Source: Candidatus Heimdallarchaeum aukensis
Lineage (GTDB): Archaea; Asgardarchaeota; Heimdallarchaeia; Heimdallarchaeales; Heimdallarchaeaceae
Direction of reading: 5' to 3'
Length of the DNA: 64,000 nucleotides
NCBI GenBank assembly: GCA_021513695.1
Contig: CP084166.1
Coordinates: forward strand, 768,001 to 832,000
Shown: piece after piece, positions 1,239-39,683 of the stretch
How positions within the stretch are numbered: the first letter of the stretch is position 1
Layout: the number at the start of each line of letters is the position of its first letter
Position numbers and translations under genes: made by a program
Notes under the pieces: model-generated
The model's input: only the letters and a program-made list of their open reading frames with translations
The model's database searches: none
Told to the model about the DNA's origin: nothing

Positions 1239-2219
1239 GTGATGCGTTTGAAAATAATCATTACAACAGAAACTGGAGAATTGCTATTTTCATATGATTC
1301 CTTTACTGAAAATAGAAAATACGATAACGTACTGATTACTGGGTTGATTTCTGCAATTGTGGTTCTATCCAATGAAGTAGTTAGTTCTTTTCCAAGAGAA
1401 ATCGAATTTGAAGGAAAAATTCTTTATTTTTATAGAGAAAATGAATTTATAGCAGCTTTACTTGCAGATATAGAGTCACCTTTTAATGGTAGTATTCTTC
1501 CAGTTATTTTAGGAGAATTTAAGAAAGTACAAGAAAAACATGGCTTTCCTACACATAAAGCAATGAGATATGACAAAGAAATTGCTTATGCAGTAAAAGA
1601 TTGTTTAGCCATGTATTTAGCAAACATGCAGAAAAAGATGGTCAAATTATTAGATGACACAGATGTAGCGGATTACAATTCAATTATAAAAGTTAAAGCT
1701 GTAGCTAAAGATTTTTTGAAAGATGCAGCTCAATTTTTGCCTATTGATTTAATTTGCAGAATGATTCCTGATGGAATGGATAAAATTCTTTATAGTTTGA
1801 TTGTAGGTATTCCTATTGTAATTTCAGGAAACAAAGATATTGTTGAGCAGTTAATTAATAGTCTAAGAATGCTTTGTCCTACAAGAATTTTAAAAATAAA
1901 ATTTTGGTCAGACAAATATATTACAGGATATGACATTATAGGAACAAATGACATAAAAATAGTTAAACCTTCACTTTATCAATTGTACATTGATATTAAT
2001 AACGGAATAGTTTTAGGGGGTAAATCATCACAATATTTCAAAGATATTGAATGTCAAATATGTAATCTAAATACTGTAGAAGCTTTTAACTTCATAAGAA
2101 GCGAGTTGAATTGGATTTTCCAAGCATTCGAAGAATTAAAAATAGATGTTTTTTCTAAAAAATCACTACCACTTGAAAAACAGCTAATTTTGTTTGAACT
2201 TTTAAAAAGGTTACATTAA
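1239..2219 (+). CDS. longin/roadblock-like N-terminal domain plus DENN/folliculin-like C-terminal domain protein
   Basis: The N-terminal ~95 aa have a roadblock/longin-type strand/helix pattern (MRLKIIITTETGELLFSYD, EFEGKILYFYRENEFIAALLAD). The C-terminal half contains ILYSLIVGIPIVISGNKDIVEQLINSLRMLCPTRILKIKFWSDKYITGYDIIGTN, which resembles the core-DENN strand-helix-LxP segment. This is motif-level recall only. Confidence 0.45.
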   Translation: MMRLKIIITTETGELLFSYDSFTENRKYDNVLITGLISAIVVLSNEVVSSFPREIEFEGKILYFYRENEFIAALLADIESPFNGSILPVILGEFKKVQEKHGFPTHKAMRYDKEIAYAVKDCLAMYLANMQKKMVKLLDDTDVADYNSIIKVKAVAKDFLKDAAQFLPIDLICRMIPDGMDKILYSLIVGIPIVISGNKDIVEQLINSLRMLCPTRILKIKFWSDKYITGYDIIGTNDIKIVKPSLYQLYIDINNGIVLGGKSSQYFKDIECQICNLNTVEAFNFIRSELNWIFQAFEELKIDVFSKKSLPLEKQLILFELLKRLH

Positions 2220-2278
2220 AATTTCAATTACGAAAAAACTATTAATAACCATTTTTAATTTAGATTAAACTTTAAATA

Positions 2279-2599
2279 GTGATGATTGTGGAGAAAAAAT
2301 CTAAAACTACTATAAAAAAATGGATTTCAAATTTAGATATCAGAAAATTAAGTTTTAGAGGAAAACTCATAATAATTATTTCATTTCTCCTTATCAGTTC
2401 TGCAATCATAATTAATTACATCAATAACTTTCAAGGAAAGATAGTAAAATATTCTGTTTGGATTCTTTTCGGTTGGTTTTTTCTCATAATAATTTTCTAT
2501 ATATCAATTAAACTACTCTCATTCACAGTTCTACGAAATAAGCAACAAAAGTTAAAAGAAGAAATAGAAAGTGATAAATTTGATCAGAGTAAAGATTAA
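2279..2599 (+). CDS. small two-TM membrane protein
   Basis: 106 aa with two hydrophobic helices (LIIIISFLLISSAIIINYI, VWILFGWFFLIIIFYISI) and a charged tail. First of three overlapping small ORFs. Confidence 0.55.
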   Translation: MMIVEKKSKTTIKKWISNLDIRKLSFRGKLIIIISFLLISSAIIINYINNFQGKIVKYSVWILFGWFFLIIIFYISIKLLSFTVLRNKQQKLKEEIESDKFDQSKD

Positions 2600-2900
2600 A
2601 CCAAAAATTGCACACGTTGTTTTTGAAATTATAGCACTACTTGCAGCCATTGCAGGTTCTCTTTACATTGCTTCTATTGCTAATAAAATTGTATTATGGA
2701 TTTTTGAGACAATAATTGTCATTGTTCTGCTTTTCTTTGGTGGAAAGAGTATATACAATAAAATGAAACCATTTTATGTTTCAGCTCCCTTAAGAGAAGA
2801 CATGATAAAGGATCAAGAAGGTAGAAAGAGAATAATAACAGAACCTACAAAAAGAGGATTAACCAATGAAGACAAAGAAATTCAAAAAAATGACGAATAG
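2571..2900 (+). CDS. small two-TM membrane protein
   Basis: 109 aa with two helices (VVFEIIALLAAIAGSLYIASI, LWIFETIIVIVLLFFGG) and a charged tail. Overlaps the upstream ORF by 29 nt. Confidence 0.55.
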   Translation: MINLIRVKIKPKIAHVVFEIIALLAAIAGSLYIASIANKIVLWIFETIIVIVLLFFGGKSIYNKMKPFYVSAPLREDMIKDQEGRKRIITEPTKRGLTNEDKEIQKNDE

Positions 2901-3096
2901 AGAATATTCAAGAGTCTATGCTACTGTTTTTCTTTTAATAATTAGTTTTCCTGTTGTTTTTATATCACAAAAATATATAGTTCCTTTTTTAGGAAATTAT
3001 GAAACAATTTATTGGTTTAGCGTTTTTTTATTACTTTCTTTTACTTTTCCCTTATTTAATTCAATTTTTTCAAAGATCATAGATAAAGAAAAATGA
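2866..3096 (+). CDS. small two-TM membrane protein
   Basis: 76 aa with two helices (VYATVFLLIISFPVVFI, IYWFSVFLLLSFTFPLF). Overlaps the upstream ORF. An alternative start, MTNREY, lies at 2890. Confidence 0.5.
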   Translation: MKTKKFKKMTNREYSRVYATVFLLIISFPVVFISQKYIVPFLGNYETIYWFSVFLLLSFTFPLFNSIFSKIIDKEK

Positions 3097-3181
3097 ATTA
3101 AACAATTCCCGACATTAATCGCAAAATAATGATTGGTGTAAGACACACATTTATATACCCTAATAAGGATATATTCAAAAA

Positions 3182-3400
3182 ATGACTGAAAGAATTATCC
3201 CTTTAATCTCACATTGTAAACAAGAAAAGATATCTATTTCACTACTTCTTTCTTCTTTAAGACTAATAGAAAAAGGCTTGATAAGAAAACAGTCTGAACT
3301 TAATGAATATCTCAAAAGAAGAGCAAAATATGAACCTCGAATCTTGAAAGATATTGAAAAAGTAGAAAGGTTGATTGTTGAAAGTAATATCATCAAATAA
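3182..3400 (+). CDS. small hypothetical protein, possible helix-turn-helix fragment
   Basis: 72 aa, charged and protein-like, with LRLIEKGLIRK. TTTATATA lies ~25-30 nt upstream of the ATG, which is compatible with a leaderless transcript. The antisense ORF 3175..3396 is low-complexity and hydrophobic. Confidence 0.35.
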   Translation: MTERIIPLISHCKQEKISISLLLSSLRLIEKGLIRKQSELNEYLKRRAKYEPRILKDIEKVERLIVESNIIK

Positions 3401-3405
3401 TTAAA

Positions 3406-4782
3406 TCATTCTATAACTTTCTTTCTTTTAGCATATTGTATCAGCATTTTAATGGCATAAGCAGCTTCTCGTGGATTTAGAAATATGGGACTACTTTCTT
3501 TTTTGGCTATTCTCTTAGATTCATTTAACAAATTTCCACTCATGAATATGGGAATTATAGGTTTCTTTCTACCTGTTTCATTCCACGCTCTAATAACTCC
3601 TTCATAATGTTCTGATGTGGTCATTCCTAAAAATGTGGGTATTACTGCAATTGGAACAACAATATCAATGTTAGGATCTTCTAGCATTGCTTTAGTTACT
3701 TCATAGTACTCTTTTCCAGTTGCTCCTGCTATCATATCCAGAGGATTAACCTTTTTTACTAAAGGAATCAAAAAAGGATCAATTTTCTCTTTGAACTCTT
3801 CAGTAAATGTGGCTAGTTTTAGTCCGAAATCATCCGCAAAATCACTGAACATCACTGCACTTCCTCCACTATTTGTTAGTACTCCTATTTTTTCGCCTTT
3901 AGGAAGTGGAAGAAATGAAAAAGCTTTAATTGCAGCAATGTAATCTGTGATACTTTCACACATTATGGCTCCTGCTTGTTTAACTGCTGTTTTTAGAGAA
4001 CTATAGTCTGTAGCCATAGAACCTGTATGGCTTGAAGCTGCTCCCATTCCAGTAGCAGTTCTTCCTCCTTTAAGTACAACAACGGGTTTATCTTTTGCTA
4101 CTTCATGTAGTTCTTCATAAAATACTCTTCCATCAACAACATTTTCTAAATAAATAGTTACCACTTTTGTGTTTTCATCTTCCTTATAGAACCTTAAAAC
4201 ATCTGTTAAATTTATGTCTGCCATATTTCCTAAATTTGCAAATTTAGAGAATCCTAATCCTTGCCAAACCATTTCATACAAAACTATTGCCCCAACTGAA
4301 CCTGATTGTGTAATCATGCTTACATTTCCTTTAGGTGGGGTTTGAATGAATGATGCATTCATTCCTATATCTACATTTTGTATTCCTACACAGTTAGGTC
4401 CTATTAACCTTATTCCTGCATCTTTCAATTTTTGAGATAACTGTTCTTGCACTTTTCTTCCTTCTTCATTAATTTCTGCAAAACCAGCAGTTACGATAAT
4501 AATCCTCTTAACTTTTTTCTCTATACATTCATCGACAACATGAGGAACAATCTTTGCAGGAACAAGTAAAATCGCTAAATCGATCTCATCTGGTATTTCT
4601 AGTACAGACTTATATGCTTTTAATCCTCCAATAGTTTCAGCTTTAGGATGAACAGGACACAATTTTGCTTTCAGATCTTTATTCTCCATTAAGTTAGCTG
4701 TTACAGCATGTCCAAACTTTTTTTCATTATCTGTCGCACCAATAATTGCAATAGAATCTGGATAGAAAAACTTCCTAGTCAT
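3406..4782 (-). CDS. ADP-forming acetyl/acyl-CoA synthetase, alpha (CoA-binding/ligase-CoA) subunit
   Basis: FFYPDSIAIIGATDNEKKFGH, IIIVTAGFAEINEEGRK and RLIGPNCVGIQN are typical of the NDP-forming acyl-CoA synthetase alpha / succinyl-CoA synthetase-like fold. No ATP-grasp beta subunit is adjacent. Confidence 0.85.
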   Translation of the reverse strand: MTRKFFYPDSIAIIGATDNEKKFGHAVTANLMENKDLKAKLCPVHPKAETIGGLKAYKSVLEIPDEIDLAILLVPAKIVPHVVDECIEKKVKRIIIVTAGFAEINEEGRKVQEQLSQKLKDAGIRLIGPNCVGIQNVDIGMNASFIQTPPKGNVSMITQSGSVGAIVLYEMVWQGLGFSKFANLGNMADINLTDVLRFYKEDENTKVVTIYLENVVDGRVFYEELHEVAKDKPVVVLKGGRTATGMGAASSHTGSMATDYSSLKTAVKQAGAIMCESITDYIAAIKAFSFLPLPKGEKIGVLTNSGGSAVMFSDFADDFGLKLATFTEEFKEKIDPFLIPLVKKVNPLDMIAGATGKEYYEVTKAMLEDPNIDIVVPIAVIPTFLGMTTSEHYEGVIRAWNETGRKKPIIPIFMSGNLLNESKRIAKKESSPIFLNPREAAYAIKMLIQYAKRKKVIE

Positions 4783-4872: not shown

Positions 4873-5835
4873 TTATTGGTTTATATATCCGTGCTCAATT
4901 ACACACTTATCAGCGTCTAGATTTAAAACACTTATAGTATACTTTTTGATGTCATCATAACTTGTACTCGTCTTATCTATAAGATCAGCGAGAATATCAA
5001 GCAACCTCCTAGCTTCCTCGTGACTTTCATCAGTTTTTATTACCAATCCAAAGATATGAGATTGTGAAGAACGGAGAATGAATTTATAGTCTTTAGACAT
5101 GATAAACTGAATAATATTTTGTTCATTGAAAGTTTTTTTTGCAAAAGTTTGTATAGCTGAGAGAAAACCAGAATAGAGAGATATTTTATCTGAAAGTTTT
5201 TTCTTTGAGATACTTAAAATTGGCAATCCATCTCTATCTGCAAGTAAAAAAGACTCAGGAGTAACTTTTCTTTTTTGAATAAGTTTAGATAACTGATTTT
5301 GTAACCAATATAGGACAGAATCAAAATTTTCTCCAGTTTGCATGCTTATCTTAAAAAATTGAAAAGAGGCATTTGGAATCATAGCGAGATTATATATTTC
5401 CACGGTATTGATAATTTCTTCCAGGTTCATACTATTTTCTAAATCTGCTTTGTTACACAGAAATAGAATTAGAAACTCATCTCCGTTATCTTTTAACTTT
5501 ATTGACTTCCAAAATTCTTCTTTTGCTTCAAGTAATGATTCTCTATCTGAAGAATCAATGATAAAAATTATCCCATAAGCTAACTTAATGTAATTTTCCC
5601 AGATAGTCTTTCTAAAAACTTCTTGTCCCCCTAAATCAAAAATATTTACTTTTAGATCAAATAGTTCATATTGTTCTAACTGAACCCCCATAGTTGGTTT
5701 AGGACTAGTGAATTTTCCTGTGAGAATTCTGTTAACAAAAGTAGTTTTTCCAGCATTAGGTAAACCTAAAATTACTAAAGGAATTCCTTTTTTCTCAAAA
5801 GAAAGTAGTTTTTCAGATATTTTCTTCTTACTCAA
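4873..5835 (-). CDS. Arf/Arl-like small GTPase fused to a C-terminal roadblock/longin-like domain
   Basis: G1 is GLPNAGKTT, G3 is DLGGQ, the Arf-like interswitch is WENYIKLAYGIIFIIDSSDRESLLEAKEEF, and G4 is NKAD. The C-terminal ~130 aa (FLLADRDGLPILSIS..SGFLSAIQTF..HIFGLVIKTD) fit a roadblock pattern. TTG start. Confidence 0.8.
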   Translation of the reverse strand: MSKKKISEKLLSFEKKGIPLVILGLPNAGKTTFVNRILTGKFTSPKPTMGVQLEQYELFDLKVNIFDLGGQEVFRKTIWENYIKLAYGIIFIIDSSDRESLLEAKEEFWKSIKLKDNGDEFLILFLCNKADLENSMNLEEIINTVEIYNLAMIPNASFQFFKISMQTGENFDSVLYWLQNQLSKLIQKRKVTPESFLLADRDGLPILSISKKKLSDKISLYSGFLSAIQTFAKKTFNEQNIIQFIMSKDYKFILRSSQSHIFGLVIKTDESHEEARRLLDILADLIDKTSTSYDDIKKYTISVLNLDADKCVIEHGYINQ

Positions 5836-6016: not shown

Positions 6017-6961
6017 TTGACAAAAAGGATTTTAGTAACTGGTAGTTACGGACAAATTGGTCAAGTTCTTGTTCCTGCTCTAATGAATAGATATGGAAAA
6101 GAAAATATTATTGCAACAGGAAGAAAAAAGATTCCTTCAGTTTTTAAAGAAAAAGATGTTCATTATCATCGATTGGATGTTCGAGACTTAGCACAAATGC
6201 AGACTCTTCTCGTTGAACACGATATCGATATCTTAATTCATAATGCATCTGTTCTTTCTGCTACAGGAGAAAAAAATCCTCAACTTGCACATTCAATTAA
6301 TTTTGAAGGTTTTTATAATGCTTTAGAAGCCACAAGAATGCTAAATCTTGAACAACTTTTTGCTCCAAGTTCTATTGCAGCTTTTGGCCCATCTACTCCA
6401 AGAGAGAATACTCCTAATGATGTAATCACTCGACCTACTACAATATATGGAATAAGTAAAGTCTATATAGAGCTAATGGGAGAGTACTATCATCAGAAAT
6501 ATGGTTTGGACTTTAGATCTCTTCGTTATCCTGGAGTAATTTCTCCTGAAGAACCTGGCGGTGGAACAACAGATTGGGCAATATGGATTTTCTGGGAAGC
6601 TTTACGTAATAAAAAATACACTTGCTTCTTAAAAGAAGATACTTCTCTTCCAATGATGTATATGCCAGACTGTATTAAATCCACTATTGATTTAATTGAA
6701 GCAGATAATTCAAAGCTTGAACATCGTTCATTTAATGTAACCGCATTTAGTTTAGCTCCCAAAGATTTAGTAGAACCTATAAGAGAGGTTATTCCTGAAT
6801 TTAAAATAGCATATGAACCTGATTTTAGACAACAAATTGCTGAATCTTGGCCAGCTTCAATTGATGACAGTGTAGCTAGAAAAGAATGGGGTTGGAAACC
6901 TGATTACGATATTCCTGCTATGACAAAAGATATGCTAGAAAAAATATCCAAAATGATTTAA
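6017..6961 (+). CDS. tdh: L-threonine 3-dehydrogenase, UDP-glucose-4-epimerase-like (extended SDR) type
   Basis: VTGSYGQIGQ Rossmann motif, YGISKV (YxxxK) and PGGGTTDWAI are characteristic of SDR-type TDH. TTG start with GGTGA 8 nt upstream. Confidence 0.7.
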   Translation: MTKRILVTGSYGQIGQVLVPALMNRYGKENIIATGRKKIPSVFKEKDVHYHRLDVRDLAQMQTLLVEHDIDILIHNASVLSATGEKNPQLAHSINFEGFYNALEATRMLNLEQLFAPSSIAAFGPSTPRENTPNDVITRPTTIYGISKVYIELMGEYYHQKYGLDFRSLRYPGVISPEEPGGGTTDWAIWIFWEALRNKKYTCFLKEDTSLPMMYMPDCIKSTIDLIEADNSKLEHRSFNVTAFSLAPKDLVEPIREVIPEFKIAYEPDFRQQIAESWPASIDDSVARKEWGWKPDYDIPAMTKDMLEKISKMI

Positions 6962-8620: not shown

Positions 8621-10060
8621 ATGAATAGTGTTGATGGGGTTAGCCTGGTAATCGGGGACATATGTAAAAGAGACATTCGTTTTTTATTAGAAAAAAGAAA
8701 AAATTCTCTCCTACCTTATAGTCCATATTGCTTTTCAACAGTTTTTGGAGACATTACCGAAGAAGATAAACAATTATTTGAAAAAATAAAGAAAAAATAT
8801 GGGTTAATTACAACAGATATGTTTTATCGATTAGTGGGTTTAAGGATTTTAATTCAAAAGGAACTTATAATTATTCAACAAAGAAAGGAGGAAGAAACAA
8901 ATAATCCTCAAGAACAGATTCATAACATAGATCAATTTCAGTTGTGCCTATTCCTTCATTCAATGCATGAGTGCGGAGAATATTCTTTTTTTTCGGAAAA
9001 GATAAATAAACAGATAGTTATAAAGCAATATTTCTTTACTCCTCCCTATTCTGTAAAGATTAAAAAAAGAAATACAAAGTGGTTTAATTTTAATAAACTA
9101 TCCAAAAAAATAAACAACTTAAATATTCATTTAGACCCTCTTTCAAACCTTTTTTTTGAAATTTTTTATGATAGAAAATTTAATTTATTTGAAACAATTA
9201 AACGCTTAGAGTATAAAGAAGAAAAATCCAAAATCAATCCAAGTTTATGGCTTTTCAAACATAAATCACCTATTGTTCCTCCAGATAATTATATCAACAC
9301 ATTTGTTGTGGGAAATAAATACAAATATATTATTGATCCTGGAGCTGACAGTAAAAAAGAAATGATAAAATCAGGTTTTCTAGACTTTATAGAAAATCAT
9401 GTAACAGAAATTGATGGAATACTACTGTCACATGGTCATTTAGATCATTGTAATCAGATCGATTTCCTTAGGAAAAATTATGGTATCCCTGTTTTTAGTT
9501 CCAAAAATACAGCAAAAAAATTATTAGAAAAAACCAATTTTAAGATTAACGGTTTCTTAAATGATAACCAGCTCATAGACCTCGGGAACTCACCTTTTTC
9601 TAAAAAAAGATGGTATCTAAAAGTAATAAACCTTAATGGTCATACAAAGGGCTCTATTGGTTTCCTTGATATGAATCGTGGTTTCTTATTTAGCGGGGAT
9701 TTTATTTTGGAAGGAAGACAAACCATTGTAGATCCAAATTATGGTTCTTTGGTAGATTTAAGGAGAAATATTAAAAAATTGCTTAAACTAAATATCACTT
9801 TTATTCATCCAGGACATGGAGATATCTTTAAGTTTGACAGAAAATGGGTAAAAACAAATCTTACATTACTAGACAATCAAGAAGAAAAAATAAAAGAGAG
9901 TATAGAATCAGGATATTCTTCAATTGAAGAGATAACTAAACATGTTTTCTCTGATAGTACAGCCCACATAGGAAGATTTCTCACTTTAGCCCACATTCAA
10001 CATCTCGAAGAAAAAAATGTTGTTATAAAAAGAGGAGAGGACTATTTCTTGAATAAGTAA
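8621..10060 (+). CDS. metallo-beta-lactamase-fold hydrolase with an uncharacterised ~230-aa N-terminal region
   Basis: SHGHLDHC (HxHxDH) and later HPGHGD in the C-terminal half. I recognise no motifs in the N-terminal half. Confidence 0.7.
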   Translation: MNSVDGVSLVIGDICKRDIRFLLEKRKNSLLPYSPYCFSTVFGDITEEDKQLFEKIKKKYGLITTDMFYRLVGLRILIQKELIIIQQRKEEETNNPQEQIHNIDQFQLCLFLHSMHECGEYSFFSEKINKQIVIKQYFFTPPYSVKIKKRNTKWFNFNKLSKKINNLNIHLDPLSNLFFEIFYDRKFNLFETIKRLEYKEEKSKINPSLWLFKHKSPIVPPDNYINTFVVGNKYKYIIDPGADSKKEMIKSGFLDFIENHVTEIDGILLSHGHLDHCNQIDFLRKNYGIPVFSSKNTAKKLLEKTNFKINGFLNDNQLIDLGNSPFSKKRWYLKVINLNGHTKGSIGFLDMNRGFLFSGDFILEGRQTIVDPNYGSLVDLRRNIKKLLKLNITFIHPGHGDIFKFDRKWVKTNLTLLDNQEEKIKESIESGYSSIEEITKHVFSDSTAHIGRFLTLAHIQHLEEKNVVIKRGEDYFLNK

Positions 10061-10118
10061 AAGTCTTATTGTTCACATAAGGATTAAGTTTTTAAAATAT
10101 TTTTTTTAACGTAAAAAC

Positions 10119-11561
10119 ATGACAGTTAATGTTCTTGCAGATAAATGTGAAATATCTAAATGTAATAGTGAGTGTGTTGAAGTTTGCCCTCAAAATAAAA
10201 AAGGCATTTCAACCATTATAATAGAACAAAATAAAGCTCAGATATTTCACAAAAACTGTATTGAGTGTCTCTTATGTATCCAATATTGCCCTCTTAAAGC
10301 TATAGAAATTCAGCAATCTAAAGAAAAAAAAGCAAGAAGAAAAGATAAAAAAAAGAGAAAAGCAAAGTTAAATCAGTCTCCTTTTGAAATTGATGAAAAA
10401 ATATATCAGCCAATGAGTGAAAAAAAGACTATTTTTGCTAGAGTTATGTGGGATGAATCATTTAAAGGTTACCAGAGAGGAATTTTTGAAGGAGCAAAAA
10501 ACAAAATTCCTCTAAACTTGGATGGATATTCTGAAATTGAACATGCTGCTATTTCTGGTGCATGGTCTATTGATAGTGTTATTGGTATGTTCGAAAGAGA
10601 ACAGTTAACAAAAATGAACCAAGAATCAAGAGCAGCAGAGAACAGTAGAGAAAAAAAGGAAAAGAAAGATCTACTTAATCCTGAGCAAAGTGTAAAAAGC
10701 AAAAGATTAATGGAAAATAATCCTTCTGAACTAACTACATGGGTAAAAAAAATAGCTATGGTTTATGGAGCAGATCTTGTAGGAATTACACCTATAAACC
10801 TTAAGTGGATATACACTGAAGATAGAAAAGGTGACCCTCTGAACCTTCCTGAAGGATTAACACATGCAATAGTTTTTGCAGTAGAAATGGATATTGATGC
10901 AATTAATACTGCTCCAAAATATCCGAGTGGAATAGCAACAGGTTTAGGCTATTCTAAAATGGCTTTTATTCGTACTCTACTAACATTTTTTATCAGAAGG
11001 ATGGGATATAAAGCTATTCCAGCAGGAAATAATATCGCCCTTTCAGTTCCTCTAGCTGTAGAAGCTGGACTTGGTGGATATGGAAGACATGGATTACTTA
11101 TTACAAAAAAATATGGGCCTAGAGTGAGAATTGCAAAAGTTTTAACTGATATGCCCTTGGTTCCAGATAAACCTGATTATAAATTTATAAAAGCAGTCGA
11201 GCGTTTTTGTAAAACTTGTAAAACCTGTGCTAAAAAATGTCCAAGCAATTCTATTCCTTTTGATAAAGAACCTAGCTTCAAAATACAAAGTGAAGTGAGC
11301 AACAATCCAGGAATAAAGAAATGGTATGTAAATGTTGAAACTTGTTATATGTTTTGGACTGAAAACGGATGTGACTGTAGTAGATGCATTTCTGATTGTG
11401 AATATAATCATGTCTATACACTTCCTCACAAAATTGTTAATTGGATTGTTATGAATCTCCCCTTCCTTAACCCTATTTGGCCTTTTATTGGAAAAATCCT
11501 AGGATATGGAGGAAATAAATCAGCAAAAAAGTATTGGAAGAAAATAAAAGTTTATCCCTAG
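10119..11561 (+). CDS. ferredoxin-domain-fused reductive dehalogenase / epoxyqueuosine reductase (RdhA/QueG) superfamily Fe-S protein
   Basis: The N-terminus has CIECLLCIQYCP plus a second Cys cluster and a Lys-rich linker. The core VEAGLGGYGRHGLLITKKYGPRVRIAKVLTDMPLVPDKP is followed by FCKTCKTCAKKCP and GCDCSRCISDC. There is no Tat signal. Confidence 0.7.
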   Translation: MTVNVLADKCEISKCNSECVEVCPQNKKGISTIIIEQNKAQIFHKNCIECLLCIQYCPLKAIEIQQSKEKKARRKDKKKRKAKLNQSPFEIDEKIYQPMSEKKTIFARVMWDESFKGYQRGIFEGAKNKIPLNLDGYSEIEHAAISGAWSIDSVIGMFEREQLTKMNQESRAAENSREKKEKKDLLNPEQSVKSKRLMENNPSELTTWVKKIAMVYGADLVGITPINLKWIYTEDRKGDPLNLPEGLTHAIVFAVEMDIDAINTAPKYPSGIATGLGYSKMAFIRTLLTFFIRRMGYKAIPAGNNIALSVPLAVEAGLGGYGRHGLLITKKYGPRVRIAKVLTDMPLVPDKPDYKFIKAVERFCKTCKTCAKKCPSNSIPFDKEPSFKIQSEVSNNPGIKKWYVNVETCYMFWTENGCDCSRCISDCEYNHVYTLPHKIVNWIVMNLPFLNPIWPFIGKILGYGGNKSAKKYWKKIKVYP

Positions 11562-14332: not shown

Positions 14333-15229
14333 ATGCCATTAGTAGAATGTGTTCCTAATTTTTCGGAAGGAAGAAGAAAGGAAGTTGTAGACAAAATTGT
14401 AGAAGAGATTCAAAAAGGTGGAAAAGTTACTTTGCTTGATTCAAGAATGGATCCTGACCATAATCGTGCAGTAGTAACTTTCATTGGAGAACCACAGGAA
14501 TGTTTTAAAGCAGCATTTGCAGGATGTAAAAAAGCTGCAGAGCTCATAGACATGGACCAACATACTGGAGAGCATAACCGATTTGGTGCCACAGACGTAA
14601 TTCCATTTATTCCTATAAGTGACATCACTATCGAGGAATGCGCAGAACTTGCAGATAAGCTTGCTAAGAAAATTGGTGAGGAATTAAATATTCCTACTTA
14701 TCTCTATGGTGCAGCAGCCAAAAGACCAGAGCGTGAAGTTCTTCAGAAGTATAGAACAAAATCATTCCAATATGAACAACTAAAAGAAGAGATAGCTACT
14801 AATCCTCTTTACGAACCAGATTATGGTCCTAAAGAAGTTCCAAAGGCAGGAGCTACAAATGTTGGTGCAAGAGAGTTTTTGATAGCTTACAACGTCTATC
14901 TTGATACTAATGACTACGAAATTGCAGCAAAGATTTCAAGAGCAATACGTTTCAGTGGAGGAGGATTAAGGTACATTCAAGCTGGTCCTATGGAAATAAA
15001 AGAGAGAAATTGTGTTCAGGTTAGTATGAATATTACAAACTACAAAGGAACGCCTATTCATAGAGTTTTAGAAATGATTAAGCGAGAAGCTGCACAATAT
15101 GGAGTAAATGTTACTGAGACTGAAGTTTATGGAATGATTCCATTAGATGCTTTGCTTGATGCAGCAATTCATTATCTTCAATTACACAACTTTGATAAGC
15201 AACAAATAATTGAAAAAAGAATAGAATAA
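14333..15229 (+). CDS. glutamate formimidoyltransferase
   Basis: The N-terminal LVECVPNFSEGRR is the hallmark of the formiminotransferase domain of FTCD. Confidence 0.9.
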   Translation: MPLVECVPNFSEGRRKEVVDKIVEEIQKGGKVTLLDSRMDPDHNRAVVTFIGEPQECFKAAFAGCKKAAELIDMDQHTGEHNRFGATDVIPFIPISDITIEECAELADKLAKKIGEELNIPTYLYGAAAKRPEREVLQKYRTKSFQYEQLKEEIATNPLYEPDYGPKEVPKAGATNVGAREFLIAYNVYLDTNDYEIAAKISRAIRFSGGGLRYIQAGPMEIKERNCVQVSMNITNYKGTPIHRVLEMIKREAAQYGVNVTETEVYGMIPLDALLDAAIHYLQLHNFDKQQIIEKRIE

Positions 15230-15230
15230 G

Positions 15231-15881
15231 GTGAAAAAAATGGGAGAAGAATTACTAATTAATAAAAAAATAGTAGATTTCTTAGATGAACTTGCTTCAG
15301 ATAGCCCTGCTCCTGGAGGAGGTTCTGCGGCTTGTATAGCTGGAGCAATGGGTGCGTCTCTTGGTTCAATGGTTGCCAGACTAACCATTGGTAAGAAGGG
15401 ATATGAAGAAGTAGAAGAGTTTTTCAAAGAGAAACTAGAAAAAACAGAAGAACTAAGAAAAGATTTAACCAATCTAGTTGATAAAGACGCCAACGCTTTT
15501 TCAGGAGTTATAGAAGCTTTTAAGATGCCTAAAGAAACTGAAGAACAAAAAGCTGCTCGTTCTGCAAAAATTCTAGAAGAGTATAAAAAAGCAGCTGAAG
15601 TTCCAATGCTAACTTGTAAAAAATGCCGAGAAGTCATAGATTTATTGGCGGAAATGGGTACTAAAGGAAATAAAAACGCTCTTTCTGACATTGCAGTAGG
15701 AGCTCTATGTGCATTAACTGGTCTACGTTCTGCAGCTCATAATGTAGAAATAAATCTCGGATACATAAAAACTAAAGATGCAGAATATGCAGACAAGATG
15801 TACAAAGAGCTAGAAGAACTTCTAGAAGGAATAGAAGAAAAAGTTAACAAACTTGATGAAGACGTAAGAGCAACATTCTAG
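15231..15881 (+). CDS. formimidoyltetrahydrofolate cyclodeaminase / methenyl-THF cyclohydrolase (FTCD C-domain family)
   Basis: LASDSPAPGGGSAACIAGAMGASLGSMVARLTIGKK. Starts 1 nt after the transferase stop. Confidence 0.85.
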   Translation: MKKMGEELLINKKIVDFLDELASDSPAPGGGSAACIAGAMGASLGSMVARLTIGKKGYEEVEEFFKEKLEKTEELRKDLTNLVDKDANAFSGVIEAFKMPKETEEQKAARSAKILEEYKKAAEVPMLTCKKCREVIDLLAEMGTKGNKNALSDIAVGALCALTGLRSAAHNVEINLGYIKTKDAEYADKMYKELEELLEGIEEKVNKLDEDVRATF

Positions 15882-19715: not shown

Positions 19716-20537
19716 TTAAAATAGAAAAGGTATTAGTGCTTTCCTATTATTTGGGTAATCAGTGAATTTTTCTTGATACCAATTGTGATGAGCTCGGGCT
19801 CTGGGTGCTAAGTTGAAAAATGTCCATAAAGCAAAAACCAATCCAGGAACTGACCAAGTTAATATTGCCCAACCTATCCATTCCATTATCTCTCCAAGAT
19901 AATTAGGAGATGAGACAAACTTGAACATTCCACCATAAGGAATCTTATACCCATCTTTTGCTCCTTTTTCTCTGAGATTGCGGAGAATATGATCTGATTG
20001 CTTGTTAATAAAAAATCCAGTAATAAACATAATAATGCCAATGATAAATTGTGGAGAATAAAACCATGTATTGGTGTACATATTTTCTGGAACAAGGTAA
20101 AAAAGCCATATTCCCTGAATATAAGTATTGAAGAGATTAAAAGTTACTCCAAAGAGCATTATCAATATAGGCATTTTTTTCCTTCCTCTTAACATCCAAG
20201 GATAAATTAGGGCCCGATGAATATAGTGAATTTCAAATATTGCAATAAAGACAATGAAAACTGGATCCTTTATTCTTTCACTTCCAAAAAAGTAAATTGC
20301 CATTAACAATGCGGACGGAAATTCCATTATAAACCAAGCTACTCTATCATCTAAAGTTGGCCCCCATCCTTTTCTTCTATGACGTCCATAGGGTGCTGTT
20401 ATGAAAAACAGTAAGATGAATATTGAAACTCCTAACCCTAAAAAAACGTACATTACAGCTTTAAAATATAAAGGGTTACCAAATACAGAAAGAATAGATT
20501 CCATAAGTGAAGATAGTAAAGACATTATTCTTTTCAA
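19716..20537 (-). CDS. 3-oxo-5-alpha-steroid 4-dehydrogenase / polyprenol reductase family membrane protein (SRD5A-like), paralog 1
   Basis: APYGRH, HYIHRALIYPW, YKIPYGGMFKFVSSPNYLGEIMEWIGWAILTWSVPGLVF, HHNWYQEKFTDYPNNRKALIPFLF. The C-terminal signature resembles SRD5A1/2. Confidence 0.85.
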   Translation of the reverse strand: MKRIMSLLSSLMESILSVFGNPLYFKAVMYVFLGLGVSIFILLFFITAPYGRHRRKGWGPTLDDRVAWFIMEFPSALLMAIYFFGSERIKDPVFIVFIAIFEIHYIHRALIYPWMLRGRKKMPILIMLFGVTFNLFNTYIQGIWLFYLVPENMYTNTWFYSPQFIIGIIMFITGFFINKQSDHILRNLREKGAKDGYKIPYGGMFKFVSSPNYLGEIMEWIGWAILTWSVPGLVFALWTFFNLAPRARAHHNWYQEKFTDYPNNRKALIPFLF

Positions 20538-33678: not shown

Positions 33679-35265
33679 TTGATGAGATTTGTTTTATTTT
33701 CTGATACCCATATTGGTGGAAGATATGATGAAATGATATTGATGAAAGGTATAGATTTTATTAATAACATTGATGGAGATATTTTTATTCACTGTGGAGA
33801 TTTAACTGGTTCTGGCACTTTGGCTGAATATGAGATTGCTAGACTTTATTTAGAAAAAATCAAGAAAAGGCCTTTTTTCATTGTTCCTGGAAATCATGAC
33901 TGCAAAAATGTGGGTGATTTACTTTTTGAAGAAATAGTTGGTGAGCGTTTTTGGGTAAAGACATTCGAAAAAAAGAAAACTCGGATTCTTGGTCTTGACT
34001 CTACTGAACCCGATGCAAATACTGGAAGAATGGGTCCTAAATCAATAAAAAGAATTTATGAAGAATTTGAGGATTTACCAGAATATTGGTTAAAAGTTTT
34101 AGTTTTTCATCATCAGACTTTACCAATTCCCTATACTGGTAGAGAAAGAAGTGCAATCAAAGATGCAGGAGATGTAGTGAAAGCTATTCTTGATTGTAAC
34201 ATTCATCTTGTTTTCAATGGTCATAGGCACATTTCTAATGTCTATAAGATGTCTGATGGAGTAGTAAATGCTTGGATTATTAATGTTGGTACATTATCTT
34301 GTAAAAAAACTAGATATAGAGAAGAGTATAGCTTAACTGTCGTTGATGCTTCTTTAAAGAAAAACAACCTTGCTATTCGTAGTATACTACTTAAGAAAGA
34401 GCCTATCAGAGAAGTTGTAAAATATTCTGGTAAATTCCAACGTTTTATTGCCCCTATGAATAAGAAACACATAGCAACAATAATTCAAATAGGCAATACA
34501 GCTTTTTCTAATTCACGATTTAGGATGGGTAATTTCTACAAAGGTCTCGAAACAATTAATCTCATCCCTTGTGATGTAGTTGTCCATTGTGGAGAAGTTA
34601 CAGGTGCCTCCTATGTCAATGAGTTTCAAAGAGCAAAGGCTTTATTATCTCAAATAGAAAAACCTCTTATTGTTGTTCCAGGAGATAATGATGCTTTTCC
34701 ACTTGGTTGGGATTTGTTTCCTGAGTACATTGGTGATCCTAACCCCTATTTTGAGAATGAGCATTTGATTGTTAAAGGGTTCAATACTTGCTTAATTGAC
34801 GAACAAGAGGGAAGACTCGGAAGAGGAAATATGAAAGAGATGATAACAACATTTGAGAATAAATCAAAAATAGGAGTAGTAGCTTTTCATCATTCAATAA
34901 TGCCTTTACCTCACTCTAAACATGATGCAGAGCTAATAGATGCAGGAGATGTTCTTGCTGCCATAGTAAACCACAGAATCAATCTCGTTTTAACTGGAGC
35001 TAAAAATAGAAGCGGGTGTTGGCAAGTTAACGACACTGTATTTGTAAATGCTGGAACACTCAGCTCTGAAAATATTACTACAAGAGACGGAAATAGTTTC
35101 AACATAATAACCATTAGCCAAACAGATATAGGTAAACTTTACGAGGTCGATGAGTATTTTGTTGAAACAAACGAAAGAAAAACTATTGGAGTTTTCCATA
35201 TTTCTGATAGGGGGATACCTATTCTCATTCCTGATAGAAAGGTTCCCAACACCATTCATTTATGA
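33679..35265 (+). CDS. tandem calcineurin-like metallophosphoesterase: intact N-domain plus degenerate C-domain
   Basis: Domain 1 has FSDTHIG, CGDLTGSG, PGNHD, FHHQ and NGHRH. Domain 2 has IGNTAFS, CGEVTGAS, PGDNDAF, FHHS and TGAKNRS at the same positions, so most metal ligands are lost. Confidence 0.8.
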   Translation: MMRFVLFSDTHIGGRYDEMILMKGIDFINNIDGDIFIHCGDLTGSGTLAEYEIARLYLEKIKKRPFFIVPGNHDCKNVGDLLFEEIVGERFWVKTFEKKKTRILGLDSTEPDANTGRMGPKSIKRIYEEFEDLPEYWLKVLVFHHQTLPIPYTGRERSAIKDAGDVVKAILDCNIHLVFNGHRHISNVYKMSDGVVNAWIINVGTLSCKKTRYREEYSLTVVDASLKKNNLAIRSILLKKEPIREVVKYSGKFQRFIAPMNKKHIATIIQIGNTAFSNSRFRMGNFYKGLETINLIPCDVVVHCGEVTGASYVNEFQRAKALLSQIEKPLIVVPGDNDAFPLGWDLFPEYIGDPNPYFENEHLIVKGFNTCLIDEQEGRLGRGNMKEMITTFENKSKIGVVAFHHSIMPLPHSKHDAELIDAGDVLAAIVNHRINLVLTGAKNRSGCWQVNDTVFVNAGTLSSENITTRDGNSFNIITISQTDIGKLYEVDEYFVETNERKTIGVFHISDRGIPILIPDRKVPNTIHL

Positions 35266-35343
35266 TATAACTTAGATATTTAACTAGTTATATCGATAGA
35301 TATTGTAAAAAAATTTAAATCTAAATAATGAAGTGTACACCTT

Positions 35344-36627
35344 ATGCACAAAGAGGTAAAAAATTCAAAAAACGTTTCTTTTCCAGTTGTAATAAAAAAT
35401 TTAGATGAGAGAATGAATAAATGGTTGAAAGAAGCACAGAAACGTATATTTAGTATTGCTGCAGGAGATAGGATTTCATTCATAGCTTCTGCCATAGCAC
35501 AAGTTGGTTTTGGCAAAATCCTCTATGCTGCAAATGAACTTGGGGTTGATATTGAAAAAACCAAACCATACATTTTTTTTGCTCCTGACGGAACTTGCTC
35601 ATACAACGAAATTAGAATAAAAAGAGGTTTTACATATGGTTGTATATTCAAAGCAGATTTCGAGGGACTGATTGGTACTAATAACTCAATGCCAAACGGT
35701 TGTGGATATAGCTTATATGAACTTAAAGATTGGAACGATGATGAAACTCTAATCAGAACTTTAAACCAAATAAAGCAAAATATAACAGAAGAACAAGCAA
35801 AAGAACTAGGAAAAGGCAATCATTTTATTGCTGTTTACAAGGTTTTAGACGCTATATCAGGAGAAGATACAGAAAGGAGAATGGTATTACTTCATTGTAG
35901 TGGGCATGATTTAAGCAAAAAACCACTTTATTTCTTCAACTGGTTAGAAGAAACAGATGGATGTCATAAAGTACAAACACCACATGGAGAAATTTACCTT
36001 TTAGAAAGTGAGGCAAAAAAGAGATATATCAAAGAATTTGAGAAACTTGACAAACACAATAAAGAAGCTCGTGTCACTGTCATGAAAGAGTTGTTTAGAG
36101 ACTCTTCCTATGAATTAATTTCAAGTATCACTCACCAAGGGTTATATAATAACGGTTCATATCATTTTTTGGGAATACAAAAAAGCGAAAAACTTATTCC
36201 TATAGCTTTCAATGCAGATGAAGGAGGAATTGCTGTCAAGACAAAGAAGAATCTGTCAGGACAATTTATAGATCAATGGAAACAAGGAACAAGAGTGAAA
36301 GATTTAGGATATGAAAGAGAATTTAAAGAGCTCAACTTTACTCCACACGGAGGAGGATACGAATTCAAATACCCAATCAAACGTTTTGTTATATTCTTAA
36401 ATGATCAAGGACTGGATCACTTCTCGGTTGAATTAAAAAAGCCGAAAGAGCCAAGTATTAAACTTATTGCTTCCTATTTCAAACCTATTAGAGAATACAT
36501 GACATATAGGAGAAAGTTACCAGTAATGAAAGAAGTCTTTAAAGCGGAGCTAGCAAACCACATTTATGATCTTGTTCCATTTATGCAATTACATCCTAAA
36601 GTTAGTATTCCTGGAGGACATTACTAA
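35344..36627 (+). CDS. hypothetical protein with RtcB-like motif series (possible divergent RNA ligase)
   Basis: Ordered motifs MPNGCGYS, LGKGNHFIAVYKV, VLLHCSGHD and FTPHGGGYE resemble RtcB PD.H.G.G, G.GNHF.E, HSGSRG and HGAGR. The spacing differs from canonical RtcB. Confidence 0.3.
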   Translation: MHKEVKNSKNVSFPVVIKNLDERMNKWLKEAQKRIFSIAAGDRISFIASAIAQVGFGKILYAANELGVDIEKTKPYIFFAPDGTCSYNEIRIKRGFTYGCIFKADFEGLIGTNNSMPNGCGYSLYELKDWNDDETLIRTLNQIKQNITEEQAKELGKGNHFIAVYKVLDAISGEDTERRMVLLHCSGHDLSKKPLYFFNWLEETDGCHKVQTPHGEIYLLESEAKKRYIKEFEKLDKHNKEARVTVMKELFRDSSYELISSITHQGLYNNGSYHFLGIQKSEKLIPIAFNADEGGIAVKTKKNLSGQFIDQWKQGTRVKDLGYEREFKELNFTPHGGGYEFKYPIKRFVIFLNDQGLDHFSVELKKPKEPSIKLIASYFKPIREYMTYRRKLPVMKEVFKAELANHIYDLVPFMQLHPKVSIPGGHY

Positions 36628-36651
36628 TCAAGATTTAACCAAAGTGATAAT

Positions 36652-37395
36652 ATGCATTCTAACCCTTACATTATAGCTCATCGGGGTTTTTCTTCTAAAT
36701 ACCCCGAAAATACTATTCTAGCGATTAACAGGTCAGTAGGAATAGCAGATATTGTTGAATTTGATGTTCAACTTACAAAAGATAGGTATGTAGTTTTATT
36801 TCATGATGAAACAACAAAAAGGATTTTCCCAGAAATCGAGGAGAAGAGAATCCAAGACTTATATTATCATGAACTAAAAGAATTAAATGCTGGTAAATGG
36901 TTTTCATCAAAAATAGAAAAACAAACTATTCCCAAACTCGAGGAAGTAGTAGAAAAGATAAACAACAAAATCTCAATGATTATTGAATTAAAGAACAAGG
37001 GAAATAAAGAAAAAAAAGAAGAACTAGCTACTATAGTATTGAATATCCTAGATGACAACAATGTCTCTTTAAACAAAGGGTATCTTTCAGTTCGAGACTT
37101 AGAAATGCTTGAAATTATTAACTCTCTTTCTTCAAAATACAGAATTGGATTAATGCAGAAAACGAGAACACCGGAAGAATTTATAGAACTAGTTAAAAGT
37201 AACAATCTTGAATTTGCTCAAATAAGATGGAAGAATTGGACTGAGAGTAATTGGCAAGAACTTTTGTCTTTAGAAACTAAAATTACTGCTTTTTATGCTG
37301 ATGAAGAAAAAGAATACAATTTTTTAATTGAAAAACAAGTTTATGGAATTTTCACTAATTTTCCAGATAGATTAAGAAAACTGCTGAACATGTAG
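36652..37395 (+). CDS. glycerophosphodiester phosphodiesterase
   Basis: IIAHRGFSSKYPENT, EFDVQLTKDRYVVLFHDET. Confidence 0.85.
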   Translation: MHSNPYIIAHRGFSSKYPENTILAINRSVGIADIVEFDVQLTKDRYVVLFHDETTKRIFPEIEEKRIQDLYYHELKELNAGKWFSSKIEKQTIPKLEEVVEKINNKISMIIELKNKGNKEKKEELATIVLNILDDNNVSLNKGYLSVRDLEMLEIINSLSSKYRIGLMQKTRTPEEFIELVKSNNLEFAQIRWKNWTESNWQELLSLETKITAFYADEEKEYNFLIEKQVYGIFTNFPDRLRKLLNM

Positions 37396-38242: not shown

Positions 38243-38788
38243 GTGATACAGAGGAACTACAAAATAATACTTATTGGAAATGCTCTTGTTGGAAAAACTG
38301 CTATTGTAACACGTTTTGCTAAAGATTACTTTGAACAGAACTATTTGAGAACGCTAGGAATCAATTACTACATAAAGACACAAGTAATTACTAATGTAGA
38401 AGTAAAGATGATTATTACAGACACCGCAGGACAAGAAGCGTTTCAACGCCTAAGAAGTTCGTATTACAAGGGGGCAAGAGGAGCAATAATTGTTTATGCA
38501 ATAAATGACAGACATAGCTTTGGACAAGTTGATTATTGGAAGAATGAAATGTTCAAGACTTTAAAAGAAATCCCAATAATAATTGTCGGAAATAAAATTG
38601 ACTTAATCGATCAAAGAAGAATATCAACAAGTGAAGGACGCTTGTTAGCGAAAAAATTGGGTTGTTTATTTATTGAATCATCTGCTAAAACAGGAGAAAA
38701 TATTGATAAAATCTTTGAAATGATAGTTAAAGATATACTAAGAAAAGATAATTTAATAACAGAAGAAAAAGAAGAAAGTTCTACTTAA
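38243..38788 (+). CDS. Rab-like small GTPase
   Basis: G1 is GNALVGKT, G3 is DTAGQE, then YYKGARGAIIVY, G4 is GNKIDL and G5 is SAKTGEN. There is no C-terminal Cys, so no prenylation motif. Confidence 0.85.
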   Translation: MIQRNYKIILIGNALVGKTAIVTRFAKDYFEQNYLRTLGINYYIKTQVITNVEVKMIITDTAGQEAFQRLRSSYYKGARGAIIVYAINDRHSFGQVDYWKNEMFKTLKEIPIIIVGNKIDLIDQRRISTSEGRLLAKKLGCLFIESSAKTGENIDKIFEMIVKDILRKDNLITEEKEESST

Positions 38789-38918: not shown

Positions 38919-39683
38919 ATGCTAGAAAGAGTTTTTTTTATTTATTACCAGTATATCTTTTTATCTTTAGGTATAGTAACTTTTTTTCTATTACTTAGAA
39001 TTACAGCTCCTTATGGGAAACATTTTTCAGAAAAATTTGGTCCTTCAATTAAAGGTTCTTGGGCTTGGTTGATTATGGAATCACCAGCAGCAATTACGAC
39101 TACGATTCTATTCTTACTTTCGCTAAAAGAACTATCACTAGTTCCTGTGCTTTTGGTTTGCATTTTTTGTATTCACTACTACCCTAGAGATTTTATTTAC
39201 CCTTTTTGGGCTAGAAGAGAAGCAAAAACACCTTTGATTATTATGTTCTCTGCTATATTCTTTAATATTAGCAATGCTTATCTTCAGACTAGATGGTTAC
39301 TCAAATTCGCTCCTGAAGATAAGTATACTATTAGTTGGCTTTATAGTCCCCAATTTATTGTTGGAAGTTTACTATTTATTTTAGGATTTATATTTAATCG
39401 AAAAGCTGAATTCTCATTAAGAAAACTAAGAAAGAAAGGAGAAAGTAGTTACAAAATACCCTATGGGGGAATGTTTGAGCTTATATCTTGTCCTAACTAC
39501 TTCTTTGAAATTATTGAATGGATAGGTTGGGCAATAATAACTTGGTCAATTCCAGGGCTTGTATTTATGATTTGGACTATAGCTAATCTTGGCCCAAGAG
39601 CAGTTAGCACGCATAACTGGTATAAAAATAACTTTCCAAATTATCCAAAATCAAGAAAAGCTCTTATTCCATTTGTTTTTTGA
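38919..39683 (+). CDS. SRD5A-like steroid-5-alpha-reductase / polyprenol reductase family protein, paralog 2
   Basis: APYGKH, HYYPRDFIYPF, YKIPYGGMFELISCPNYFFEIIEWIGWAIITWSIPGLVF, THNWYKNNFPNYPKSRKALIPFVF. Collinear with the 19716..20537 product. Confidence 0.85.
   Translation: MLERVFFIYYQYIFLSLGIVTFFLLLRITAPYGKHFSEKFGPSIKGSWAWLIMESPAAITTTILFLLSLKELSLVPVLLVCIFCIHYYPRDFIYPFWARREAKTPLIIMFSAIFFNISNAYLQTRWLLKFAPEDKYTISWLYSPQFIVGSLLFILGFIFNRKAEFSLRKLRKKGESSYKIPYGGMFELISCPNYFFEIIEWIGWAIITWSIPGLVFMIWTIANLGPRAVSTHNWYKNNFPNYPKSRKALIPFVF

Follow-up and report, generated by a model that had tools for sequence, protein, structure and literature searches.

The question raised by a 64,000-nucleotide stretch of the genome of Candidatus Heimdallarchaeum aukensis (contig CP084166.1, positions 768,001 to 832,000; hereafter the window) is what a pair of SRD5A-family (steroid 5-alpha-reductase) genes encodes in an archaeon, how old the pair is, and on which substrates its products might act. 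The organism is represented by a circularised Asgard genome, obtained from an enrichment of Auka hydrothermal vent sediment (Wu et al. 2022, PMC8813620). The first gene, called copy 1 throughout, is the open reading frame (ORF) 19716..20537 on the minus strand, which has a TTG start and encodes a seven-transmembrane (7-TM) reductase of 273 amino acids, and the second, copy 2, is the ORF 38919..39683 on the plus strand, which encodes a diverged paralogue of 254 amino acids. Their products are 100% identical to the Ca. H. aukensis proteins P0001 and P0391, respectively. The public NCBI model of copy 1 has 269 amino acids, four fewer than the ORF, and we infer from this difference in length, rather than from a direct reading, that it starts at Met5 (base 20525). 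Both copies are confirmed here as full-length, intact membrane reductases of the SRD5A family, and we consider it probable that both work as membrane-embedded double-bond reductases dependent on reduced nicotinamide adenine dinucleotide phosphate (NADPH), of the SRD5A1/2/DET2-type branch.

Family, fold and branch of the two proteins

A sequence-only reading of the window had recognised both ORFs as SRD5A-family members and as paralogues of each other, and both assignments hold. The Steroid_dh model (PF02544) matches copy 1 over positions 1-150 of its 150 positions with 183.9 bits (E-value of 2e-54) and copy 2 over positions 2-150 with 186.9 bits (E-value of 3e-55), and a chance match is excluded because these end-to-end scores compare with a curated cut-off of 22.6 bits. 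The two proteins share 50% identity across 251 residues (E-value of 4e-91), and the motifs quoted in that reading, namely YKIPYGGMF, SxPNYxxEIxEWIGWA and the C-terminal HxWY..F.DYP..RKALIPFxF, are found. The best match among solved structures is that of the bacterial PbSRD5A (PDB identifier 7C83; 37-42% identity), with E-values of 4.6e-67 for copy 1 and 2.9e-59 for copy 2, and human SRD5A2 (PDB identifier 7BW1) is matched with E-values of 1.8e-49 and 1.3e-43, respectively. Using phmmer, residues 32-272 of copy 1 could be aligned with 7C83 and residues 41-273 with 7BW1, and the corresponding spans in copy 2 are residues 15-253 and 20-254; in both copies, the homology covers the N-terminal substrate-binding half (transmembrane helices TM1-4) and the cofactor half alike. 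AlphaFold models of the two proteins, with a mean predicted local distance difference test score (pLDDT) of 92.9 for copy 1 and 91.3 for copy 2, have seven transmembrane helices, the fold that is common to PbSRD5A. Foldseek superimposed copy 1 on 7C83 with a template-modelling score of 0.93 and an RMSD (root-mean-square deviation) of 1.7 Å and copy 2 with a score of 0.92 and an RMSD of 2.1 Å, while the scores against 7BW1 were 0.86 and 0.89; searches with the two models retrieved no other PDB fold at an E-value of 1e-3 or below.

Within the family, the two copies belong to the SRD5A1/2/DET2-type branch and not to that of SRD5A3/DFG10. Prokaryotic homologues score 230-300 bits by BLASTP and eukaryotic SRD5A1/2-type proteins 148-196 bits, the latter over the full length and with 35-42% identity, while SRD5A3 scores 60-76 bits over the C-terminal half. 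The human SRD5A3 query is 98% identical to P0121 and served just to retrieve named database sequences. Its match is confined to the cofactor half, where residues 147-273 of copy 1 (76 bits) and 147-254 of copy 2 (60 bits) align over about 120 residues with 34-36% identity. A profile-profile comparison using hhalign, of the copy 1 alignment (A1) with a 20-sequence SRD5A3 profile, likewise aligned 104 C-terminal columns alone (probability of 99.2%), and neither BLASTP nor the profile-profile comparison aligned the N-terminal halves with that of SRD5A3, a longer protein of 318 amino acids. SRD5A3 and Dfg10 are nevertheless of the same superfamily, share the C-terminal NADPH-binding half and carry out an analogous reduction of a C=C bond conjugated to a carbonyl. 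In a joint alignment, which is unreliable in this region, the Glu and Tyr positions of the family do not lie opposite a Glu and Tyr of SRD5A3.

The relationship to the eukaryotic SRD5A1/2 proteins is that of full-length homologues with the same catalytic pair, cofactor site and F118, yet the label 'eukaryote-type' that had been given to the pair does not fit. Trees were built by neighbour-joining (NJ) from Kimura distances and their deep nodes lack support: a tree of 261 sequences has undefined distances to its SRD5A3 outgroup and a backbone without support, and a bootstrapped tree of 45 named sequences resolves shallow clades only. In the latter, the eukaryotic SRD5A1/2 proteins form a clade of their own (95% bootstrap) with both archaeal copies outside it, and the nearest relatives of the copies are archaeal and bacterial.

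Active site and the divergence of copy 2

Residues are numbered below as in human SRD5A2 unless a copy is named; the full-length human reference agrees with the 7BW1 alignment, and residues were mapped using an alignment with 270 homologues plus an alignment of a curated set. Structural work has defined a catalytic triad of Q56, E57 and Y91, and NADPH is bound by N160, D164, R171, N193, E197, R227, H231 and Y235 (PMC7815742). The catalytic Glu57 and Tyr91, shared with PbSRD5A, are kept as E72 and Y105 in copy 1 and as E54 and Y87 in copy 2, and neither position varies in alignments A1 and A2; nor does that of F118, a residue that contacts the steroid (PMC7591894). Copy 1 retains all eight NADPH binders (N178, D182, R189, N212, E216, R246, H250 and Y254), in common with PbSRD5A, whereas copy 2 retains six of the eight and differs by D164E, a conservative change, and H231T. 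Kept in both copies are E57, Y91, R94, N160, R171, N193, E197, R227 and Y235. A loss of the catalytic residues, which the sequence-only reading had named as grounds for abandoning its assignment, is therefore not seen, given that the Glu/Tyr pair and most NADPH binders are present.

The first position of the triad is different, since both copies have Met at position 56 and so depart from the Gln56 of the 'QEY' triad seen in PbSRD5A and in eukaryotic SRD5A1/2. Met is the majority state among the 270 homologues (216 sequences, with Gln in 32), and therefore 'QEY' typifies animal and PbSRD5A-like members and not the whole branch. An M-E-Y triad like that of the two copies is also present in a DET2-like protein from the streptophyte alga Mesotaenium (P0254). 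Met at position 56 is thus the common prokaryotic state, a point that this analysis adds. In the 45-sequence tree, the Mesotaenium protein groups with bacterial PbSRD5A and Polyangiaceae sequences, apart from other eukaryotes and with weak support; the loop past its TM5 contains a long insert of low complexity.

The changes in copy 2 raise the alternative that it has lost catalysis or uses another cofactor and persists as a regulatory or binding paralogue. Its states at NADPH-contacting positions are rare among the 270 homologues (D164E in 2, G196F in 1 and H231T in 11), and it also carries H93P. H93P and D164E are common to its orthologues P0392 (93% identity) and P0393 (63% identity). Position 196 is Phe in copy 2 and P0392 and Ala in P0393, and position 231 is Thr in copy 2 and P0392 and Tyr in P0393; G196 and H231 have therefore been lost across the copy 2 lineage. 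However, the catalytic Glu/Tyr pair and most NADPH binders are kept, the SRD5A fold is modelled confidently, and the ratio of nonsynonymous to synonymous divergence (dN/dS) against orthologues is 0.10-0.17 for copy 2, as compared with 0.07-0.10 for copy 1, over a long divergence in which synonymous divergence (dS) to the Heimdallarchaeaceae orthologues is saturated at about 1.8. We consider it unlikely that copy 2 has lost catalysis or changed its cofactor. Copy 1 is the conservative copy of the pair, whereas copy 2 is a selected lineage rather than a decaying one, and the remodelled periphery of its cofactor site suggests that its substrate, its affinity for the cofactor or its regulation differs. 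In the 93% identical orthologue P0392 (positions 10001-10726 of locus L016), 13 residues (NISNAYLQTRWLL) are absent from the fourth transmembrane helix; they may truly have been deleted, or their absence may be an artefact of assembly or gene calling.

Substrate class, competing explanations and the age of the pair

In every characterised branch of the family, NADPH is used to reduce a C=C bond conjugated to a carbonyl, be it in 3-oxo-delta4 steroids, trans-2-enoyl-CoA or polyprenal. By analogy with the solved homologues, a lipid substrate of the two copies would enter laterally from the bilayer into the pocket formed by TM1-4, where the Glu/Tyr pair (E72/Y105 or E54/Y87) would form hydrogen bonds with the substrate carbonyl and polarise it. 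TM5-7 and the cytosolic loops would hold the NADPH, whose hydride would then pass to the beta carbon of the conjugated double bond, and the catalytic Glu would donate a proton. Such a mechanism would imply that the substrate is a lipid with an alpha,beta-unsaturated carbonyl. All characterised prokaryotic members act on 3-oxo-delta4 steroid skeletons, and our best guess for a substrate that the copies would reduce in vitro is accordingly a steroid-like enone of the 3-oxo-delta4 kind. PbSRD5A reduces progesterone. The 5-alpha-reductase (5AR) of Bacteroidota, which is of the same branch, reduces 3-oxo-delta4-lithocholic acid (3-oxo-delta4-LCA), as confirmed by gene disruption (PMC10382948). Other members of this branch are Leifsonia DET2, which rescues an Arabidopsis det2 mutant (PMC11131428), and the enzyme of Treponema denticola, which has 5-alpha-reductase activity (PMC11301207); in all of these cases the 3-oxo-delta4 reductase function is that of the relatives. 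Of the alternatives that had been offered for the window, a lipid or steroid-like reductase pair is the one that the evidence supports.

Several observations weigh against this functional reading. We know of no archaeon that makes sterols, and H. aukensis is not known for a steroid pathway; activity of the archaeal members would be an extrapolation from relatives, and the gene neighbourhood yields no clue to a pathway. Given the lack of known archaeal sterols and the deep-sea hydrothermal sediment source (PMC8813620), the substrate, were it a steroid, would need to come from outside, or else it would only resemble a steroid. The human SRD5A2 mutants Q56A and Q56L are inactive (PMC7815742) and both copies have Met at this position, and in copy 2, the activity of which is a prediction, D164E and H231T alter two of the eight NADPH binders. 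Moreover, the family shows little conservation of the residues that line the substrate pocket, and these vary with the substrate (PMC7591894), so that the substrate class is not readable from the sequence. Candidate substrates are environmental steroid-like enones, such as sedimentary sterol ketones, or alternatively an endogenous isoprenoid aldehyde, and the latter, if true, would bear on the alpha saturation of archaeal dolichol and on the origin of the eukaryotic dolichol pathway.

The sequence-only reading had offered the thought that the pair could be the archaeal counterpart of the polyprenol reductase step of dolichol synthesis. Its premise is outdated, as SRD5A3 and Dfg10 have been found to reduce polyprenal instead of polyprenol and to need a dehydrogenase partner (2024; PMC11250103). 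Restated accordingly, the pair would be the Asgard counterpart of SRD5A3/DFG10 and would reduce the alpha-isoprene on the way from polyprenal to dolichol for N-glycosylation. This would fill a real gap in what is known of how archaeal dolichol becomes saturated at its alpha unit (PMC5088576), and the chemistry fits, since SRD5A3 reduces a conjugated enal (PMC11250103). SRD5A-type proteins were recorded in each of the five Asgard proteomes that were surveyed, with 'numerous paralogs' (PMC7997004), the Heimdallarchaeum genome carries eukaryote-like OST3/STT3/ribophorin genes (PMC8813620), and the PbSRD5A crystal had the linear lipid monoolein in its substrate pocket (PMC7815742). Against this stands the restriction of the SRD5A3 alignment to the C-terminal cofactor half, at the profile level included. 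No isoprenoid, dolichol, oligosaccharyltransferase or other glycosylation gene and no adjacent dehydrogenase partner is found among the roughly 50 annotated ORFs of the window, and no dolichol/N-glycosylation or polyprenol dehydrogenase gene lies beside the homologues in 17 related loci. The subfamily is common in bacteria, many of which are among the closest relatives of the copies and whose carrier lipids are not known to be alpha-saturated. Furthermore, Lombard (2016) reported polyprenol-reductase homologues to be 'absent in archaea' among the genomes then available and concluded that archaea saturate the alpha unit otherwise (PMC5088576). None of the 120 SRD5A3 matches listed in our search is prokaryotic. 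The archaeal genomes available in 2016 include species with chemically proven alpha-saturated dolichol. We find no support for the pair as a dolichol-step counterpart and regard it as distinctly unlikely. The broader proposal that Asgard SRD5A-type reductases, this pair included, saturate the alpha-isoprene of a glycan carrier through a polyprenal-like intermediate seems to us very improbable; were it true, the eukaryotic polyprenal-to-dolichal step would have a precursor in the archaeal host, and the paralogues could serve different chain lengths or carriers.

The natural substrate could also be an enone or enoyl lipid that is neither steroid nor dolichol precursor, for example a trans-2-enoyl thioester, as in TECR, or, among the intermediates of archaeal membranes, an oxidised isoprenoid or a quinone. 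The family includes enoyl-CoA reductases, and archaea are not known to make sterols; as noted above, the pocket residues vary with the substrate. TECR/TSC13 is of the same Pfam family and shares the C-terminal half, but it is not the best full-length match of either copy. TECR art-1 of Caenorhabditis elegans (matched chain of 309 amino acids) was retrieved with E-values of 2.8e-16 for copy 1 and 4.9e-14 for copy 2, mostly through the C-terminal half and in copy 2 through residues 144-253 alone, and it is far weaker than human SRD5A2 or PbSRD5A (1e-59 to 1e-67). No fatty-acid or quinone gene is adjacent to either copy in the window, and no member of this subfamily is known to use such substrates, so we give this explanation little credence.

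A reductase of the SRD5A1/2/DET2 type could, finally, have reached the archaeon by recent acquisition of one or both copies from sediment bacteria such as Spirochaetota, in which case it would have no archaea-specific role. Both copies are of a type that is common in sediment archaea and bacteria. The best 120 matches are metagenomic or prokaryotic with 50-57% identity, as against 35-42% for eukaryotic SRD5A1/2-type proteins, and among representatives at 50% identity, 4454 were found with E-values of 1e-3 or below and 405 with 1e-30 or below. Named matches with 45-57% identity come from archaea (Heimdall-, Loki-, Thor-, Hod- and Promethearchaeota and Bathyarchaeia) and from bacteria (Spirochaetota, Polyangiaceae, Chitinophagales, Actinomycetota and Bacteroidales), with Spirochaetota among the nearest at 50-54%. 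In the 45-sequence tree, a large Asgard clade of Loki-, Thor- and Hodarchaeota (100% bootstrap) consists of two subclades (98% each) and leaves both copies outside, a second archaeal clade unites Heimdallarchaeal, Bathyarchaeial and other Asgard sequences (100%), and the copy 1 and copy 2 proteins of Heimdallarchaeaceae form separate clades (100% each) whose deeper placement is unsupported. By codon-usage distance the copies rank 45th and 48th of 51 genes, a measure on which the amino-acid composition of short membrane proteins has a confounding effect.

However, no supported bacterial clade of this tree holds either copy, and the GC content and the GC content at third codon positions (GC3) of both are within two standard deviations of those of the window genes; a recent transfer thus finds no support. 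Heimdallarchaeaceae contain separate orthologues of each copy, at the saturated synonymous divergence given above, and no relative of copy 2 above about 50% identity was found outside this family. In a distant Heimdallarchaeaceae genome (GCA_054001415.1), both orthologues are present about 13 kb apart on a single contig (JBMXSF010000146.1), where they flank a block of a Metallophos phosphoesterase, an ORF of about 428 amino acids and a GDPD phosphodiesterase. The same block precedes copy 2 in the window (33679-37395, plus strand) and is kept in Heimdallarchaeaceae (L014 and L017), and therefore both the pair and its loose linkage are older than the divergence of these genomes. The two copies are thus old, loosely linked paralogues that have been retained in Heimdallarchaeaceae, and a recent bacterial origin, the other ground on which the sequence-only reading would have been given up, appears quite unlikely; any transfer would be ancient, and an ancient exchange with sediment bacteria is possible, the deeper origin being unsupported in the NJ tree. 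The position of the block between the two orthologues on the contig JBMXSF010000146.1 suggests that the paralogues were once closer together.

That the copies are membrane methyltransferases or DUF1295 proteins, as weak matches to PEMT (PF04191, 27-30 bits) and DUF1295 (PF06966, 29-32 bits) and database names such as 'methyltransferase', 'Ste14' and 'DUF1295 domain-containing protein' might suggest, is hardly credible, since these matches cover just part of the shared cofactor-binding half, PF02544 is matched over its full length, and isoprenylcysteine methyltransferase (ICMT) structures superimpose poorly on the models (template-modelling scores of 0.2-0.35). These weak matches account for the vague public names; both copies are labelled 'DUF1295 domain-containing protein' at NCBI, the UniRef name of copy 1 begins with '3-oxo-5-al', and neither copy has a match in NCBIfam.

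Both genes are thus public and annotated, the family is structurally well understood, and a 2021 transporter survey (PMC7997004) had already recorded that it occurs in Asgard archaea and has paralogues there; this survey is the one paper found in our literature search that ties the enzyme name to these archaea. What is added here, besides the state of position 56, is the subfamily assignment, the recognition of an old and selected pair, and the lineage signature of copy 2. The interest of the pair lies in a family that purifying selection maintains in organisms for which sterol synthesis is not known, and that was duplicated more than once in Asgard lineages. Thor- and Hodarchaeota are found in both subclades of the large Asgard clade, which points to a separate old duplication in other Asgard lineages; the members are P0036, P0081, P0106, P0110 and P0489 in one subclade and P0061, P0096, P0400, P0403, P0405, P0422, P0423 and L007 in the other.

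Two further observations concern the family at large. The motif 'YSPQF' was considered as a marker joining copies 1 and 2 with the Heimdall/Bathyarchaeia clade and was set aside, as 'SPQF' is also found in some bacteria and in Diplonema. The SRD5A domain is fused to 200-300 additional residues in P0243 (455 amino acids), P0251 (528 amino acids) and P0302 (573 amino acids), the first of which is an Oligoflexales bacterium protein with the SRD5A domain at residues 220-454.

Neighbouring genes

Copy 1 is flanked by an M20 dipeptidase gene on one side and by genes for a CBS protein and a Na+/H+ exchanger on the other, and copy 2 is preceded by genes for a Ras-family GTPase, a nitroreductase and a GDPD protein; then comes a 304-residue protein of unknown type. 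The remaining genes of the window belong to amino-acid and nucleotide metabolism or encode transporters, peptidases and small GTPases. Synteny around copy 1 extends within the genus only (L001) and that around copy 2 within the family only. A conserved neighbourhood was therefore discarded as a clue to function, there being no neighbour common to other Asgard, Bathyarchaeial or bacterial loci, and the genes beside homologues from other taxa bear no relation to each other. Small ORFs of 64-105 amino acids on the opposite strand within copy 1 are without support as genes, as AT-rich sequence yields such frames by chance; the GC content is about 30% throughout the window, and Rfam and tRNA scans of the window gave zero matches.

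In gut Bacteroidota, the 5AR gene clusters with genes for a 3-beta-hydroxysteroid dehydrogenase (3-beta-HSDH) and a 5-beta-reductase-like protein, whereas no such cluster is present in the window, where a generic epimerase/3-beta-HSD-like short-chain dehydrogenase/reductase (SDR) is encoded at 6017-6961, 13 kb from copy 1. An arrangement that recalls the Bacteroidota clusters is seen in a Spirochaetales locus (L002), in which an extended SDR (1252-2607, minus strand; Epimerase 86.7 bits, 3Beta_HSD 46.8 bits) and an SRD5A homologue (2679-3437, plus strand) lie side by side in divergent orientation.

The Ras-family small GTPase next to copy 2 (38243-38788, plus strand; PF00071, 179 bits) lies 130 bp upstream of it. 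This adjacency is kept in the locus of the 93% identical relative (L016) and not in that of the 63% identical relative (L014), for which reason a functional coupling was rejected and the arrangement is probably coincidental. A protein of 320 amino acids encoded at 4873-5835 on the minus strand carries an Arf-family GTPase domain at its N-terminus (123 bits), and its C-terminus weakly matches the first longin domain of FUZ/MON1/HPS1 with 25.3 bits, slightly below the cut-off of 26.1; a fusion of GTPase and longin domains, of the eukaryotic-signature type, is a possible reading. A third small GTPase, of the Ras family, is encoded at 55557-56090 on the plus strand (56.6 bits), and the presence of three small GTPases in 64 kb is in keeping with reports that Heimdallarchaeum has a large repertoire of GTPases. 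Lastly, a formiminotransferase (FTCD_N and FTCD domains; 14333-15229, plus strand) is followed after one base by a cyclodeaminase (FTCD_C; 15231-15881, plus strand), so that the two activities are encoded by adjacent genes in the window, whereas FTCD of animals is a single fused protein.

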